From Pseudomonadota bacterium (GTDB taxonomy: Bacteria; Pseudomonadota; Gammaproteobacteria; Steroidobacterales; Steroidobacteraceae), in the NCBI GenBank assembly GCA_947459825.1, contig CANHFH010000002.1, positions 17,150-81,149 on the forward strand: a DNA stretch of 64,000 nucleotides, read 5' to 3'. Within the stretch, counting starts at the first letter, position 1. Each line of letters begins with the position of its first letter. Below are positions 1 through 17,689 of the stretch, piece by piece. The position numbers were made by a program, and so were the translations under genes. A model generated the notes under the pieces. The model worked only from the letters and a program-made list of their open reading frames with translations. It did not search any database and was not told where the DNA came from.

Positions 1-879
1 CGGTCCCTGTGTGCAGGCGATGGTCGTCAACAGCCGATGCTTGGACATCAGCGGCGCGTCGCCCGTGTGCATCAGCATGAAGCAGCCGGTGCCGTAGGTG
101 TTCTTGGCCATGCCGGGCTCGAGACAGGCCTGGCCGAAGAGCGCGGACTGCTGGTCGCCGGCGAGCGCGGTGAGCGGCACTTCGAGTCCGCCGATCCGCG
201 CGCGCAGGCCGTCGTCCGCCGAGGAGGGCCGTACCGTCGGCAGGCAGGCGCGCGGGATGCGCAACAGTCCGAGCAGATGCTCATCCCACTGTCCGGTACC
301 GAGGTTCAACAGAAGTGTACGGCTTGCATTGCTGACATCGGTGACATGGTGGCGGCCGCCGGAGAGCTTCCAGGCGAGCCAGCAATCGATGGTTCCGAAG
401 CAGAGCTCGCCGCGCTCGGCGCGCGCGCGGGCGCCCGGTACATGATCGAGCAGCCACGCGAGCTTGGTGCCCGAGAAGTACGGGTCGAGCAGGAGCCCGG
501 TGCGCGCCGTGACCTCCGGTTCGTGTCCGGCGGCGCGCAGCTGCGCGCAGACATCGGCGGTGCGCCGGTCCTGCCAGACGATGGCGCGCGCTACGGGCGC
601 GCCGGTGCTGCGGTCCCACAGCACCGTGGTCTCGCGTTGGTTGGTGATGCCGACGGCGGCGATGTCGGCGGGCGCGACCCCGGCGGTCTGCAGCACCTCG
701 TCGATGGTCGCCGACTGCGTCGCCCAGATCTCGTCGGCGTCGTGCTCGACCTGACCGGGCGCGGGGAAGTGCTGCGTGAACTCGCGCTGCGCGACGGCGA
801 CGATGCGGCCCGCCGCGTCGAACAGGATGGATCGCGAACTCGTGGTGCCTTGGTCGAGGGCGAGGATGTAGCGGCTCAT
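1..879 (-). CDS. glpK: glycerol kinase, N-terminal part (gene runs off the left edge)
   Basis: Reverse translation from ATG (877-879) gives [21 protein letters not shown]... The frame stays open to base 1 (...[13 protein letters not shown]). It is missing from the ORF track because there is no stop in the window. It lies 25 nt downstream of the glpD stop. Confidence 0.9.
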
Positions 880-904
880 GCGCGCGTCTCCTTGAGCGGT
901 GCGT

Positions 905-2521
905 TCAGGCGGTGCGTGAGGCGAACCAGTCTGCCACGGCCCGTGCGGCATCGGGCGACAGGTGCAGGCCGAGTTTGCTGCGGCGCCAGAGCACATCCTC
1001 GGCGCTGCGCGCCCACTCGACCTCGGCGAGGTAGGCGAGCTCGCGCGCGTACAGGCCGGGCGCGACCTCGGCACCGAGGTCGGCGAGGGCACGGGCATCG
1101 CCCAGCAGGCGCTGAACGCGGCTGCCGTAGGCGCGGGCGTAGCGCAGCGCGAGCGGCGCCGGCAGCCAAGGCCGCTCGGCACCGAGGCGCGCGACGAAGG
1201 CCGCGAATTCGTCCTCGGCCCGGCCGGTGCAGAGGCGTCCGCCGCCCGCCAGATCGCCCCCGGGCAGCGGCGCGCCGCCGGTCCAGGACGGCGCGCGACA
1301 GCCGAGCAGCGGGGCGAGCTTCGTCACGGCTTCCTGCGCCAGCGTGCGGTAGGTGGTGATCTTGCCGCCGAACACGCTCAACAGCGGCGCGGGCGCCGTG
1401 TCCATGACGAGCGCATAGTCGCGCGATACGGCGCGTGCGTCGCTGGTCTCGTCCTCGAGCAGCGGTCGTACGCCGGAATAGGTCCACACGACATCGGCCG
1501 GCGCCAAGGCCCTCCGGAAGTAGCGCCTGGCCTCGCGGCAAAGATATGCGACCTCATCGGCGTCGATGCGCGGCGCGGCGGGGTCCGCGTGGTGCTCCAC
1601 ATCCGTGGTGCCGATCAGCGTGAAGTCCGTCTCGTAGGGGATCGCGAACACGATACGGCGGTCGCTGGCCTGGAAGATGTAGGCGTACGGGTGGTCGAAG
1701 AGCTTGGGGACGACGATGTGGCTGCCCTTGACGAGCCGCAGACCGTGGCGCGCCGGACCCGGCGTGGCGAGATCGTGCAGCTGCGCGGCCCACGGCCCTG
1801 CGGCGTTGACGACGGCGCGGGCGCGCAGTGTCGTCGCCGTGGTGCCATCGGTGGCCGTCGCGTCCGTCGTCGATGTCGTCGTCGGCTGCAGCGTGGCGCG
1901 CCAGCCGCCGGCGCCGTCCGGCTCGAGCGCGCTGCAGCGCATGCGGGTGGCGATGGTGGCGCCGCGTTCGGCGGCGTCGAGGGCGTTGAGCACCACGAGC
2001 CTTGCATCGTCGACCCAGCCGTCCGAGTACTCGAAGCCGCGCGGGATCCCTTCGCGCAGCGGCGCGCCGGCCGGGTGCCGTCGCAGGTCGATGCCCTGCG
2101 AGCCCGGCAGATGCCGCCGACGGGCGAGGTGGTCGTACAGGAAGAGGCCGGCACGGATCATCCAGGCCGGGCGCAGCGAGGCGTCATGCGGCATCACGAA
2201 GCGCAGCGGCCACATGATGTGGGGCGCGATGCCGAGCAGCGTCTCGCGCTCGGCGAGCGCCTTGCGCACCAGGCCGAACTGCATGAACTCGAGGTAGCGC
2301 AGGCCGCCGTGGATCAGCTTGGTGCTGGCCGAGGAGGTGTGCGAGGCGAGGTCGTGCTGCTCGACGAGCACCACGCGCAGGCCGCGGCCCGCCGCGTCGC
2401 GCGCGATGCCGGCGCCGTTGACGCCGCCGCCGACGACCAGCAGGTCGCAGTCGGTCGGCAGCGCGGTGCTTGCGCGCTGCGCAGGTGCTGCGCTCTGAGG
2501 CCCGGGGTCGGCGCCGCTCAT
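905..2521 (-). CDS. glpD: aerobic glycerol-3-phosphate dehydrogenase (FAD)
   Basis: ORF 905..2602, with the start taken at the internal ATG 2521 (MSGADPG...) behind GAGG. It has the FAD fold motif [22 protein letters not shown] and GlpD-like [13 protein letters not shown]. Confidence 0.9.
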
Positions 2522-16623: not shown

Positions 16624-16636
16624 TGGCGGTGTCCCC

Positions 16637-17689
16637 GTGACCGTGACCTTGCGCCGTTGGCTGCTCGCCGTCGTGGTACTGGCCTGCGTCGCCGGCATCG
16701 TCGGCTCGCGTGCGCAGCAGGCCGAGATCACCATCCGCATCGCTTTCCTCGCTTCGCAGGACGACGAGGACTACATCGGCGCGGTGGCGTTCCGCGAGGC
16801 GCTGCGGCAGCGGCTCGGCGACCGCGTCGCCGTGCAGATCTATCCGTCCGGGCAGTTCTGCGGCAACGAGCGCGAGTGCATGGAGGCGCTGCAGAGCGGC
16901 ATCCTCGAGATGCACCAGACCACCATCGGCGGCCTCGCAGGGCTCTACGGGCCGGCGCAGGTGTTCGATCTGCCGTACACCTTCGCCGACGACGCCGTGG
17001 CCGAGTGCGTGTTCGACGGCGAGGTGCCGCGGGCGATGGGCGAGGCGATCCTGCAGCAAGGTCTCGGGCTGCGCCTGATGGCGGTCGGCAACACCGGCGG
17101 CTGGCGCAGTTTCGCGATGACCGAGCGGCGCATCACGCGCGTCGCGGACCTCGCGGGGCTGCGCATCCGCACGCTGCCGTCGGCGCTCGAGCAGGAGATG
17201 GTGCGCGAGCTCGGCGCGAGCCCGATGGCGCTGCCGTTCTCGGAGATCTACACCGCGCTCGGCGCCGGCATGCTCGCCGGCACCAAGAACAGCATCCAGG
17301 ACGTGATGGGGATGAAGTTCGACGAGCACATCCGGCACCTCTTCGTGGACCGCCACGCCTACATGGCGTCCTTCTGGTGGTATTCGGAGCAGGGTTGGCA
17401 GCGCTTGCCGCCCGATGTGCAGCAGGCGGTGCGCGAGGCGTTCGTGGCGCTCGCCGCGGCGACGCGCCGCGCGGCCAAGGACCGCGAGGCTCCGGCGCTC
17501 GCCGCGTTCGAGACCGGCGGCGGCACCATCGACTACATCACGGATGCGCAGCGCGCCGAGTTCCGCGCCGCGACCGCACCGTTGCGCGAGTGGTATGCGT
17601 CGCGCTACCCCGGCGACTGGCTGCGTCGCGTCGATGACGCGGTCGCCGCTTGCGGCGCGCGTGCCGCGCCCACCGATCCATCGACCTGA
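16637..17689 (+). CDS. TRAP periplasmic solute-binding protein (DctP family)
   Basis: GTG start, signal peptide, and DctP-like blocks (EALQSGILEMHQTT, GLRIRT, YTALGAGMLAGTKNS). The gene order Q-M-P is inverted relative to the common P-Q-M. Confidence 0.8.
   Translation: MTVTLRRWLLAVVVLACVAGIVGSRAQQAEITIRIAFLASQDDEDYIGAVAFREALRQRLGDRVAVQIYPSGQFCGNERECMEALQSGILEMHQTTIGGLAGLYGPAQVFDLPYTFADDAVAECVFDGEVPRAMGEAILQQGLGLRLMAVGNTGGWRSFAMTERRITRVADLAGLRIRTLPSALEQEMVRELGASPMALPFSEIYTALGAGMLAGTKNSIQDVMGMKFDEHIRHLFVDRHAYMASFWWYSEQGWQRLPPDVQQAVREAFVALAAATRRAAKDREAPALAAFETGGGTIDYITDAQRAEFRAATAPLREWYASRYPGDWLRRVDDAVAACGARAAPTDPST

Follow-up and report, generated by a model that had tools for sequence, protein, structure and literature searches.

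A candidate single-locus route from sulfoquinovosyl-glycerol to pyruvate and sulfite in Steroidobacteraceae

Can a single bacterium carry the breakdown of sulfoquinovose (SQ) from its glycoside down to sulfite? Some 10 billion tonnes of SQ are produced every year, and the accepted picture of its degradation is a relay, in which primary degraders split SQ and excrete sulfolactate or 2,3-dihydroxypropane-1-sulfonate (DHPS) and secondary degraders free the sulfur. The question is raised by a locus of about 18 kb, at positions 1-17689 of a 64,000-nucleotide stretch of Steroidobacteraceae DNA (GenBank assembly GCA_947459825.1, contig CANHFH010000002.1, positions 17,150 to 81,149; hereafter, the window), which consists of two divergent, tightly packed gene strings around one conserved operator. 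An initial annotation, made from the sequence letters, had proposed that its genes take sulfoquinovosyl-glycerol (SQGro) to dihydroxyacetone phosphate (DHAP), pyruvate and sulfite, with glpDK handling the glycerol. Our computational analysis supports this proposal. We consider it likely that the locus encodes a single-locus pathway for these conversions, in which a "hybrid" sulfo-Embden-Meyerhof-Parnas (sulfo-EMP) half is joined to sulfolactate desulfonation. At the sequence level, the support comes from family identities, the YihV triad of the kinase, the orthology of SuyB, an SqgH-type signature in the glycosidase, and synteny together with the recurring pairing of suyAB with SQ genes in other genomes.

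Because the window has about 70% G+C (its raw lists of open reading frames, ORFs, were full of artefacts), genes were picked by third-position GC and then typed with Pfam and NCBIfam. All eleven functions that had been read from the sequence were recovered in this way. Neighboring genes on the same strand are 0 to 45 bp apart or overlap, the exception being a gap of about 110 bp 5' of the TonB-dependent receptor gene. The locus is composed as follows.

1-879, minus strand: glpK, glycerol kinase (FGGY_N, 1.5e-72); partial, with the N-terminal 293 aa present, cut by the left window edge
905-2521, minus strand: glpD, FAD-dependent glycerol-3-phosphate dehydrogenase (DAO and DAO_C); ORF open to 2602, likely Met start at 2521
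2529-3455, minus strand: SlcC-like D-2-hydroxyacid dehydrogenase (2-Hacid_dh and 2-Hacid_dh_C)
3465-4490, minus strand: ComC-like Ldh_2 dehydrogenase (Ldh_2, 1.6e-95)
4519-5694, minus strand: suyB, large subunit of the predicted (R)-sulfolactate sulfo-lyase, 391 aa (GD_AH_second and GD_AH_C); ORF open to 5739
5702-5989, minus strand: suyA, small SAF subunit of the predicted sulfo-lyase, 95 aa (SAF, 6e-5); GTG start after GGAG
6026-6037, no strand: predicted operator in the 58 bp that separate the divergent suyA and gntR genes, a perfect palindrome, TCTTATATAAGA
6048-6806, plus strand: GntR/HutC-family regulator with a UTRA effector domain (GntR and UTRA); first plus-strand gene, its stop overlapping the kinase start
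6803-7762, plus strand: predicted YihV-type 6-deoxy-6-sulfofructose kinase (PfkB, 8.8e-42)
7806-8822, plus strand: class I (Schiff-base) aldolase of the LacD/YihT superfamily (DeoC/LacD)
8836-10239, plus strand: predicted SftI/SqvD-type aldose-ketose isomerase (Fucose_iso_C, 1e-6)
10239-12311, plus strand: predicted SqgH-like GH31 alpha-glycosidase (three GH31 domains)
12382-14739, plus strand: TonB-dependent outer-membrane receptor (plug and beta-barrel); likely start ATGATG at 12424
14762-15331, plus strand: DctQ of a tripartite ATP-independent periplasmic (TRAP) transporter (DctQ)
15337-16623, plus strand: TRAP DctM (DctM)
16637-17689, plus strand: TRAP DctP, periplasmic binding protein with a signal peptide (DctP)

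The nearest genome is represented by locus L012 (L numbers denote the genome loci used for comparison), which has 92% nucleotide identity and comes from a contig of "Steroidobacteraceae bacterium EUL_167", a metagenome-assembled genome. The order of 15 genes is intact even in relatives whose GH31 is only 70% identical to that of the window (L007; L008-L010), and it is retained in many loci of the genome collection. Since the order is held in such diverged relatives, the arrangement is not due to chance.

What sugar does the plus-strand half act on? The clearest indication comes from the PfkB kinase. Its best solved relative is the E. coli sulfofructose kinase YihV (7AG6, 9.6e-63), followed by an uncharacterised sugar kinase (4e-50) and by ribokinases at 1e-27 or weaker. 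The kinase is 44% identical to E. coli YihV, and in a pairwise alignment the residues K27, N109 and R138 are identical. In YihV, this sulfonate triad replaces the TR/RRS phosphate-binding motif of PfkB kinases (PMC8006165). The catalytic aspartate D244, within G241-A-G-D244 (GXGD), is kept as well. By its closest relative and its triad the protein is thus predicted to be a true YihV-type sulfofructose kinase, as had been supposed, and the triad is, at the level of sequence, the strongest single indicator of a sulfosugar substrate.

The second pillar is the split UxaA-family pair on the minus strand, for which the choice lay between a sulfolactate sulfo-lyase and an altronate or galactarate dehydratase. 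Homologues of SuyB that are 86-96% identical occur across many taxa under the Joint Genome Institute (JGI) label "(2R)-sulfolactate sulfo-lyase subunit beta". On annotated plasmids and megaplasmids, SuyB identities are bimodal, with 59-79% for proteins in recognisable sulfonate clusters and at most 40% for other split UxaA proteins. The window SuyB is 68% identical to Cupriavidus pinatubonensis WP_011295855.1, which lies in an hpsN-hpsO-suyAB cluster (hpsN, hpsO, a major facilitator superfamily transporter, a galactitol-1-phosphate-5-dehydrogenase-like gene, suyA and then the suyB homologue), and 73-75% identical to Paracoccus proteins; in P. versutus (73%) the order is GntR, suyA, suyB and "putative sulfate exporter". 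The subunit sizes (about 95 and 390 aa) are the same in these two clusters. The references are proteins of the clusters, not the exact proteins purified from P. pantotrophus NKNCYSA. SuyA is also conserved, with a 95-aa orthologue at the same position in L008 and L011 and homologues of 61-100% identity in all surveyed loci. An exact-sequence look-up of the 406-aa SuyB ORF gave no match, the only solved relative found for SuyB in the PDB search is galactarate dehydratase, and SuyA resembles the N-terminal part of galactarate dehydratase in NCBIfam. Judged by sequence identity (68-75% versus at most 40%), the pair is an orthologue of SuyAB from validated clusters and stands apart from altronate and galactarate dehydratases.

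We next consider the GH31 glycosidase, which had been taken for an enzyme of the YihQ kind. This assignment did not survive. Against the PDB, the protein scores 329 bits with YicI and 162 bits with YihQ; against NCBIfam, it scores 423 bits with an alpha-xylosidase model and 205 bits with the PRK10426 alpha-glucosidase model, which we take to be the YihQ family. Identity to YihQ is 26% (26-31% among clade members, in tblastn matches). Both catalytic aspartates are present (D405 and D472 in YihQ, D417 and D482 in the window). From the Q/E-R-W-Y motif of YihQ (Q288, R301, W304, Y508), only the arginine is retained (R305), and W304 and Y508 are both replaced by phenylalanine. A first reading, that all three sulfonate residues were lost, was based on a three-way MAFFT alignment with an aspartate opposite YihQ R301; it was dropped after anchoring on the conserved tryptophan put R301 at R305. 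Homologues of the enzyme are called "alpha-xylosidase" in public databases. Taken alone, the nearness to YicI, the missing tryptophan and tyrosine, and these names would have weighed against an SQ interpretation.

A recently described enzyme offers a different template. AmSqgH of Alteromonas macleodii (PMC12780224, December 2025) belongs to GH31, shares about 28% identity with YihQ, groups as a sister of GH31_3 (YicI) and GH31_6, and has no Q/E-RWY. It cleaves SQGro and para-nitrophenyl (PNP)-SQ, not PNP-xyloside (PNP-Xyl) or PNP-glucoside (PNP-Glc), and E. coli YicI (GH31_3) is inactive on PNP-SQ. Its predicted substrate-binding residues are R302, T377, K412 and F513, and its authors worked with an identity cutoff of 50% to AmSqgH (WP_014951134.1). 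In the window enzyme, R305, T380, K415 and F515, matched by spacing only, lie 75/35/100 residues apart, compared with 75/35/101 in AmSqgH. These four residues are invariant in 123 clade members (58-100% identical to the window GH31), and YicI has tryptophan and lysine at the first two of the positions (R305 and T380). The N terminus is homologous to that of cytoplasmic YicI, and no signal peptide was found. On these residues, the glycosidase is not YihQ-type and matches the R/T/K/F signature of the SqgH clade. SqgH itself was reported only from marine Gammaproteobacteria, and only with the oxygenolytic SQ dioxygenase (sulfo-SDO) pathway (PMC12780224). A GH31 that is 47% identical to the window enzyme and carries the same R/T/K/F signature is encoded on plasmid pDEIPE01 of Deinococcus peraridilitoris (L095).

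These three proteins bear on the plainest alternative, an ordinary locus for neutral sugars or sugar acids, composed of an alpha-xylosidase, a ribokinase-like kinase, a tagatose-bisphosphate aldolase, an L-fucose isomerase, a UxaA-type dehydratase, and phosphoglycerate and malate/lactate dehydrogenases. It would account for the names of the nearest homologues ("alpha-xylosidase", "UxaA family hydrolase") and for the best NCBIfam names of the GH31 enzyme, the aldolase and the 2-hydroxyacid dehydrogenase, which are those of neutral-sugar or central-metabolism enzymes. However, the NCBIfam equivalog matches fall far under their cutoffs, except for GlpD (above) and the partial GlpK, and otherwise only the broad PRK12858 model was passed. 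Moreover, the kinase has the sulfonate triad instead of the phosphate-binding motif, the UxaA pair has its orthologues in the SuyAB proteins of validated clusters, and the tryptophan position of YicI is an invariant arginine in the clade of the window GH31. E. coli YicI is inactive on PNP-SQ, and SqgH on PNP-Xyl and PNP-Glc (PMC12780224). We regard this alternative as extremely improbable.

The two remaining sugar enzymes fit an SQ pathway less tightly. For the isomerase, the sole NCBIfam match is the SQ isomerase SftI (NF048012; 260 bits, 3.3e-77, equivalog cutoff 700), and in Pfam its Fucose_iso_C score of 28.8 bits falls slightly short of the cutoff of 29.3. No solved relative was found in the PDB search. 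PF02952 is the SQ isomerase family of sulfo-EMP2, sulfo-transaldolase (sulfo-TAL) and "hybrid" sulfo-EMP clusters, and for Proteobacteria the "hybrid" sulfo-EMP type has been described as a set that combines a PF02952 isomerase, a PF00294 kinase and a PF01791 aldolase (PMC10665668). The isomerase gene sits between the aldolase and GH31 genes, and this core order is the same in L007, L008, L025 and L048. The enzyme is not YihS-type and, by its family match, is probably of the SftI/SqvD type.

The aldolase had been described as a class I enzyme of LacD/YihT type; it is indeed class I, with the Schiff-base lysine kept, and it is closer to LacD than to YihT. It passes the NCBIfam subfamily model PRK12858 for tagatose 1,6-diphosphate aldolase (330 bits, cutoff 184). 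Its matches in the PDB are 8TNF (1.5e-90), LacD (1e-39) and YihT (1.8e-17). Entry 8TNF is an uncharacterised "DUF2090 domain-containing protein", only 46-54% identical to the aldolases of these clusters, and thus gives no functional information; the literature on the entry consisted of unrelated papers only, and that on DUF2090 concerns inositol catabolism and was uninformative. Identity to YihT is 30%, with K193 (Schiff base) and the phosphate/sulfonate-binding S226 and R253 kept, S227 replaced by alanine and A26 by proline. The three kept residues do not discriminate, because LacD aldolases keep them too. The enzyme is no YihT orthologue, but, going by its sequence, it probably works like a sulfofructose-phosphate aldolase.

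The LacD-like aldolase brings in another sulfosugar as a possible substrate. With the same architecture, the locus could serve glycosides of sulfofucose (6-deoxy-6-sulfo-D-galactose) by an "EMP-like" route, in which a GH31 sulfofucosidase would be followed by sulfotagatose, sulfotagatose-1-phosphate and LacD-like cleavage to DHAP and sulfolactaldehyde, and then by SlcC, ComC and SuyAB. The aldolase is nearest to tagatose-1,6-bisphosphate aldolases, and exactly such a route was proposed by Stewart et al. for a PF00294 and PF01791 pair in the suyAB cluster of P. wurundjeri (PMC12421959). According to these authors, sulfofucosidases are not known and a sulfofucoside is not a substrate of YihQ enzymes, and the two sugars, as C4 epimers, yield the same (S)-sulfolactaldehyde (PMC12421959). 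Yet sulfofucose failed to induce the kinase and aldolase pair of P. wurundjeri, and sulfotagatose was not seen (PMC12421959). In the window, furthermore, the GH31 has the signature of SqgH, which acts on SQ glycosides, the only family model matched by the isomerase is that of an SQ isomerase, and the kinase is 44% identical to YihV of the SQ pathway. Sister clusters that combine suyAB with a sulfo-Entner-Doudoroff (sulfo-ED) set hold canonical E-RWY sulfoquinovosidases, and in nature sulfofucose is much scarcer than SQ. A sulfofucose locus is thus very unlikely in our view.

Why should the minus strand encode two dehydrogenases? Sulfoglycolysis leads to (S)-sulfolactaldehyde and (S)-sulfolactate, and SuyAB takes (R)-sulfolactate (PMC13436972, PMC12421959). 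The presence of both enzymes is explained by this, because the (S)-form delivered by the first half has to be turned into the (R)-form needed by the second. Their Pfam families and gene order are those of Chromohalobacter salexigens and P. wurundjeri; C. salexigens SlcC has PF00389 and PF02826, and ComC has PF02615 (PMC12421959, Table S2), in agreement with the assignment of SlcC to the D-2-hydroxyacid dehydrogenases and of ComC to Ldh_2 in the initial annotation. PDB matches of both dehydrogenases were generic. The nearest solved and NCBIfam relatives of the SlcC-like enzyme are 3-phosphoglycerate dehydrogenases, and the best NCBIfam match of the ComC-like enzyme is the archaeal L-sulfolactate dehydrogenase NF040650 (184 bits, cutoff 500).

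The outer ends of the two strings would provide uptake and glycerol salvage. A TonB-dependent receptor gene lies directly 3' of the GH31 gene, and its position is the same in L004, L007, L008 and L025. In A. macleodii, the TonB-dependent receptor MASE_18030 adjoins sqgH and is 107-fold more abundant on SQ (PMC12780224). By this analogy, we propose that the window receptor serves the uptake of SQ or SQ-glycerol. The TRAP genes are conserved in L004, L007, L017 and L048, and a TRAP system with its binding protein was proposed as the SQ/SQGro importer in the SQ cluster of R. denitrificans (PMC12780224).

On the other side, GlpK matches the NCBIfam models NF000756 and TIGR01311 with 415-448 bits over the part present and shares 94% identity with the complete gene of L012, and GlpD matches the equivalog NF008899 with 731 bits (cutoff 360). 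A GlpD homologue lies beside suyAB in 20 of 80 surveyed loci, sometimes without glpK. In tblastn searches, a GlpD-like gene adjoined suyAB without a nearby glpK in L008-L010, L016, L029, L031 and L045. Speculatively, glycerol salvage may not be the sole role of the GlpD-like protein where glpK is lacking; DHPS and sulfolactate are structural analogues of glycerol-3-phosphate. The gene string had been expected to continue leftwards beyond glpK. In L012, however, glpK is its last gene, and what follows are unrelated genes on the opposite strand, for a dehydroquinase, EptA, a GDSL-like protein and a transglycosylase. The GDSL-like protein (L012 18917-20665; 582 aa, with a weak GDSL-lipase domain) is encoded about 2.6 kb past glpK on the opposite strand, with unrelated genes between. 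That it removes the acyl chains of sulfolipid is pure speculation.

Put together, the genes suggest the following pathway, in which we infer all substrates, reactions, transport roles and regulation as well as the link by which sulfolactaldehyde oxidation would join the two halves. The TonB-dependent receptor would bring the anionic glycoside across the outer membrane, and TRAP DctPQM would carry it into the cytoplasm. There, the SqgH-like GH31 enzyme would hydrolyze SQGro to SQ and glycerol, and GlpK and GlpD would convert the glycerol to DHAP. SQ would be isomerised to sulfofructose by the SftI/SqvD-type isomerase, phosphorylated to sulfofructose-1-phosphate by the YihV-type kinase, and cleaved by the LacD-like aldolase to DHAP and (S)-sulfolactaldehyde. 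An enzyme encoded outside the locus would oxidise (S)-sulfolactaldehyde to (S)-sulfolactate. The SlcC-like dehydrogenase would then form sulfopyruvate, the ComC-like dehydrogenase would reduce it to (R)-sulfolactate, and SuyAB would release pyruvate and sulfite. The GntR/HutC regulator presumably binds a single palindromic operator shared by both operons.

Several points weigh against this pathway. First, nothing visible connects its two halves, since no sulfolactaldehyde dehydrogenase was found. No enzyme of GabD or SlaB type is encoded in the locus or among the Pfam-screened large candidate ORFs of the 64-kb window, in agreement with the initial annotation, and no GabD-like match came from the loci of the window lineage, among them the stretch of 5.4 kb that lies left of glpK in L012. 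When the unassigned ORFs from 38 loci were all clustered, no candidate dehydrogenase gene common to groups emerged. Second, as had also been noted, the window-lineage locus has no sulfite exporter and no sulfite dehydrogenase or oxidase. Third, individual assignments are less than tight: the isomerase reaches 260 bits with the SftI equivalog model, far from the 700 that its cutoff demands, the aldolase is nearer to the tagatose-bisphosphate aldolases (LacD) than to YihT, the likeness of the SlcC-like and ComC-like enzymes to those of C. salexigens is at the level of Pfam family and gene order, and the GH31 enzyme was placed with the SqgH clade by residue spacing and its position as a YicI sister, not by direct alignment with AmSqgH. 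Finally, all the evidence is computational, and metagenome-assembled genomes are the sole source of information on the host.

The dehydrogenase gap does not refute the model, because P. wurundjeri degrades sulfofucose to sulfite and likewise lacks recognisable GabD and SlaB; there, sulfofucose is converted via sulfolactate to sulfite by SlcC, ComC and SuyAB (PMC12421959). As to sulfite, sister lineages do have a PF03601 gene (SuyZ/YeiH-type "putative sulfate exporter"), located 3' of glpD or slcC in L008-L010 and L011, and L014 has a SuyZ-like match. In sister lineages, Caulobacter and Paracoccus, PF03601 genes were located at L008 14635-15765, L011 13140-14261 and L094 10357-11403. In the window lineage, that end is held by glpK.

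Do the two halves belong together in other genomes? One genome per species was scanned for SuyB, and the best 80 loci were searched with all locus and reference proteins; the sample is thus biased to query-like SuyB. ComC-like and SlcC-like genes both adjoin suyAB in 54 of the 80 loci. In 19 of the 80, the EMP-type set of the window is found again at a distance of at most 10 kb from suyAB-comC-slcC. Nine of these 19 have the window-type GH31; they belong to Steroidobacteraceae, other Gammaproteobacteria, a Rhodospirillaceae genome and the isolate Iodidimonas nitroreducens Q-1. Seven others are from Rhizobiales (Aliihoeflea, Hoeflea, Nitratireductor, Microvirga and one Rhizobiaceae metagenome-assembled genome). 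The Aliihoeflea locus, the one checked in full, also has a mutarotase, a DeoR regulator, glpD-glpK and an ATP-binding cassette (ABC) transporter.

All seven Rhizobiales loci have a GFO/IDH/MocA oxidoreductase at the GH31 position (e.g., L068 6885-8198, L087 6366-7487 and L080 7524-8828). This protein could be an NAD-dependent glycosidase or a sulfolactaldehyde-oxidising enzyme. Its identification with the NAD-dependent sulfoquinovosidase SqgA was dropped, since the SqgA paper places SqgA in the superfamily of short-chain dehydrogenases/reductases (SDR).

A further 16 of the 80 loci carry a sulfo-ED-type set instead (dehydratase, HpcH aldolase, lactonase, SDR dehydrogenase and mutarotase). Among cultured bacteria, Caulobacter sp. 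KR2-114 has a cluster of the ED type. Ten of these 16 have a YihQ-like GH31 with the E-R-W motif. Seven of the ten could be checked in full and have E-RWY (Y508) and both catalytic aspartates, while the other three are partial matches covering E-R-W only. A GabD-like aldehyde dehydrogenase lies near suyAB in 12 of the 80 loci, several ED-type loci being among the carriers. The suyAB module has thus been joined repeatedly to SQ catabolism of two unrelated chemistries, which is hard to explain unless the halves cooperate.

The core can also occur without suyAB. In the compact L095 cluster (3337-15000) of Deinococcus peraridilitoris, genes for a GabD-like dehydrogenase, a GntR regulator and an ABC transporter are accompanied by those for an SftI-like isomerase, PfkB kinase, LacD-like aldolase and SqgH-like GH31, and by one for an auxin efflux carrier (AEC)-type exporter. 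Its isomerase, kinase, aldolase and GH31 core consists of the same four genes as in the window in a different order. Judging from its genes, L095 looks like a variant of this core pathway, found in Deinococcota, that ends with the excretion of sulfolactate.

These comparisons allowed us to weigh the possibility that the window holds two independent modules that are merely neighbors, the plus strand turning SQGro into an excreted C3 sulfonate and the minus strand scavenging external sulfolactate and glycerol. No sulfolactaldehyde dehydrogenase joins the halves, suyAB-comC-slcC with the same GntR regulator and operator occurs without sulfoglycolysis genes in 45 of the 80 loci, and reviews normally assign desulfonation to secondary degraders. 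On the other hand, the locus has neither a dedicated sulfolactate importer nor a C3-sulfonate exporter, whereas the suyAB-less Deinococcus cluster has both a GabD-like enzyme and an AEC exporter. Pairing with two unrelated chemistries, EMP-type in 19 genomes and ED-type in 16, also argues against mere neighborhood, as does P. wurundjeri, which shows a working tandem pathway without recognisable GabD or SlaB (PMC12421959).

The control region speaks in the same direction, since a single stretch of 58 bp with one operator serves both operons. The AT-rich palindrome TCTTATATAAGA occurs only once in the window, at 6026-6037 between the divergent operons, and it is kept with at most two mismatches, mostly exactly, in 36 of 37 suyA-gntR intergenic regions of Gamma- and Alphaproteobacteria. 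A GntR-type regulator divergent from suyA is found also in Paracoccus versutus, in cluster 2 of P. wurundjeri and in most loci. From this conservation, TCTTATATAAGA is probably the operator bound by the suyAB-linked GntR/HutC regulator; we found no description of the palindrome in the literature examined. Overall, we judge two independent modules to be quite unlikely and retain the joined pathway from SQGro to sulfite as the probable reading.

A low-molecular-weight phosphotyrosine-phosphatase/arsenate-reductase-like gene (17704-18150, plus strand; LMWPc, 3.3e-29) starts 15 bp 3' of dctP. It is also found 3' of dctP in L004, L007 and L017; its membership in the system is uncertain, and we propose no pathway role for it. 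A strong G+C-rich hairpin with a T-rich tract lies at 14813-14834, 74 bp past the stop of the TonB receptor gene and within the predicted 5' end of dctQ; it may mean nothing, because terminator-like sites in the region occur in chance number. Promoter and terminator scans of the window were at chance level, and Rfam found no RNA family anywhere in the window.

To the right, the genes are housekeeping or unrelated (an extracytoplasmic function (ECF) sigma factor, a Ser/Thr kinase, proteases, rpoD, dnaG, ribonucleotide reductase and htpG). At 18116-22534, the gene after that of a Sigma70_ECF sigma factor encodes a Ser/Thr protein kinase of 945 aa that has TPR repeats; the two are a possible signalling pair, and the same sigma factor gene lies 3' of the locus in L004. 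Two neighboring large subtilase (S8) genes at 25409-32108 encode proteins of about 830 and 1400 aa in which Ig-like repeats (He_PIG/Big_9/PKD) are numerous; these proteases, probably secreted or exposed at the surface, have no relation to the sulfosugar locus. At 45530-48445, a ribonucleotide reductase large-subunit gene (728 aa) is directly followed by a separate ORF with a TSCPD domain; no cobalamin riboswitch was found in the window with Rfam.

What would such a locus mean? The presence of suyAB-comC-slcC beside sulfoglycolysis genes in 35 of the 80 loci suggests that one-cell mineralisation is encoded in many Proteobacteria, and the carriers in the survey come from metagenomes and from isolates of varied origin. 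If true, one-cell mineralisation would mean that taxa have to be credited differently with the sulfur and carbon fluxes that stem from SQ. The range of SqgH-type sulfoquinovosidases would widen beyond marine sulfo-SDO clusters, and the SQGro pathway would gain a glycerol-salvage arm (glpDK) and outer-membrane uptake. The locus also sharpens an enzymological question, namely, what oxidises sulfolactaldehyde where GabD and SlaB are missing. Related clusters are present in the cultured strains Iodidimonas nitroreducens Q-1, Aliihoeflea sp. 2WW, Nitratireductor sp. XY-223 and Caulobacter sp. KR2-114. A bolder version, that this locus family is the first case of complete SQGro mineralisation (to DHAP, pyruvate and sulfite) by C-C-cleaving sulfoglycolysis in a single bacterium, is common in soil and freshwater Proteobacteria, and uses a novel sulfolactaldehyde step other than GabD or SlaB, for which the locus's own phosphoglycerate-dehydrogenase-like or GlpD-like enzyme could be responsible, seems to us unlikely.

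Is the combination new? The initial annotation knew of no description of it. In the open-access and bioRxiv literature, we likewise did not find the exact combination, and we found no EMP-type sulfoglycolysis fused to SuyAB, SlcC and ComC, an earlier mention in a subscription journal being possible; precedents do exist in which SuyAB is combined with sulfo-TAL or with sulfofucose-ED. The same literature gave no SqgH-type enzyme outside marine sulfo-SDO clusters and no glpDK in an SQGro locus, and in the searchable literature no paper links Steroidobacter with sulfoquinovose. According to a 2026 FEMS review, complete single-organism SQ catabolism has not been demonstrated outside oxygenolytic routes.

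The closest known system is the tandem pathway of P. wurundjeri strain Merri (Stewart et al., mBio 2025, PMC12421959). In it, as predicted for the window, cleavage of a sulfohexose down to sulfolactaldehyde is coupled, in one organism and one cluster, to racemisation by SlcC/ComC and desulfonation by SuyAB. Its cluster likewise has a GntR/UTRA regulator followed by SuyA-SuyB and two dehydrogenases, lacks GabD and SlaB, and contains a PfkB kinase and a PF01791 aldolase. It differs in that the proven route is ED-type on sulfofucose, with no growth on SQ, no glycosidase, uptake by an ABC transporter and no glpDK, whereas the window has an EMP-type upstream half with an SftI-like isomerase, a GH31 enzyme, and a TonB-dependent receptor and TRAP system for uptake.

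With the sulfo-EMP pathway, the window shares the sequence of isomerase, 1-kinase and aldolase leading to DHAP and sulfolactaldehyde, including a YihV-type kinase with its triad. Unlike that pathway, it has no YihS, YihQ, YihU reductase or SlaB, so that DHPS or sulfolactate is not an obvious end product; its aldolase is LacD-like (30% identical to YihT), and it is extended by SuyAB, ComC, SlcC and glpDK. The GH31 enzyme resembles the SqgH clade (AmSqgH, Nat Commun 2025, PMC12780224) in being a sister of YicI/GH31_3 with less than 30% identity to YihQ, in lacking a signal peptide and in having an adjacent TonB-receptor gene. Unlike SqgH, to which it is likened by residue spacing, the window-type GH31 occurs in Steroidobacteraceae, Rhodospirillaceae, Iodidimonas and Deinococcus and is paired with sulfoglycolysis.

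The desulfonation half, in turn, resembles the modules with SuyAB, SlcC and ComC of Chromohalobacter salexigens, Paracoccus pantotrophus (suyAB-suyZ) and C. pinatubonensis (hps-suyAB) in its split lyase, both dehydrogenase types and divergent GntR regulator. Those modules serve external sulfolactate, cysteate or DHPS and have their own importer and a SuyZ/TauE exporter or sulfite dehydrogenase, whereas in the window suyAB is fused to a sugar pathway and the lineage has no exporter. Finally, the "extended" sulfo-TAL clusters with SuyAB of Thermotogae and Chloroflexi (Wei and Zhang 2022, PMC9594981) are, like the window system, a bioinformatic prediction, and would permit the use of all six carbons of SQ. 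They differ in their transaldolase chemistry and belong to other phyla, and the review's account mentions no SlcC/ComC, glpDK, TonB-dependent receptor or TRAP transporter (PMC9594981). Every module of the locus thus has a precedent, and it is the combination of sulfo-EMP, SuyAB, an SqgH-like glycosidase, TonB/TRAP uptake and glpDK for which the searchable literature gave no earlier description.

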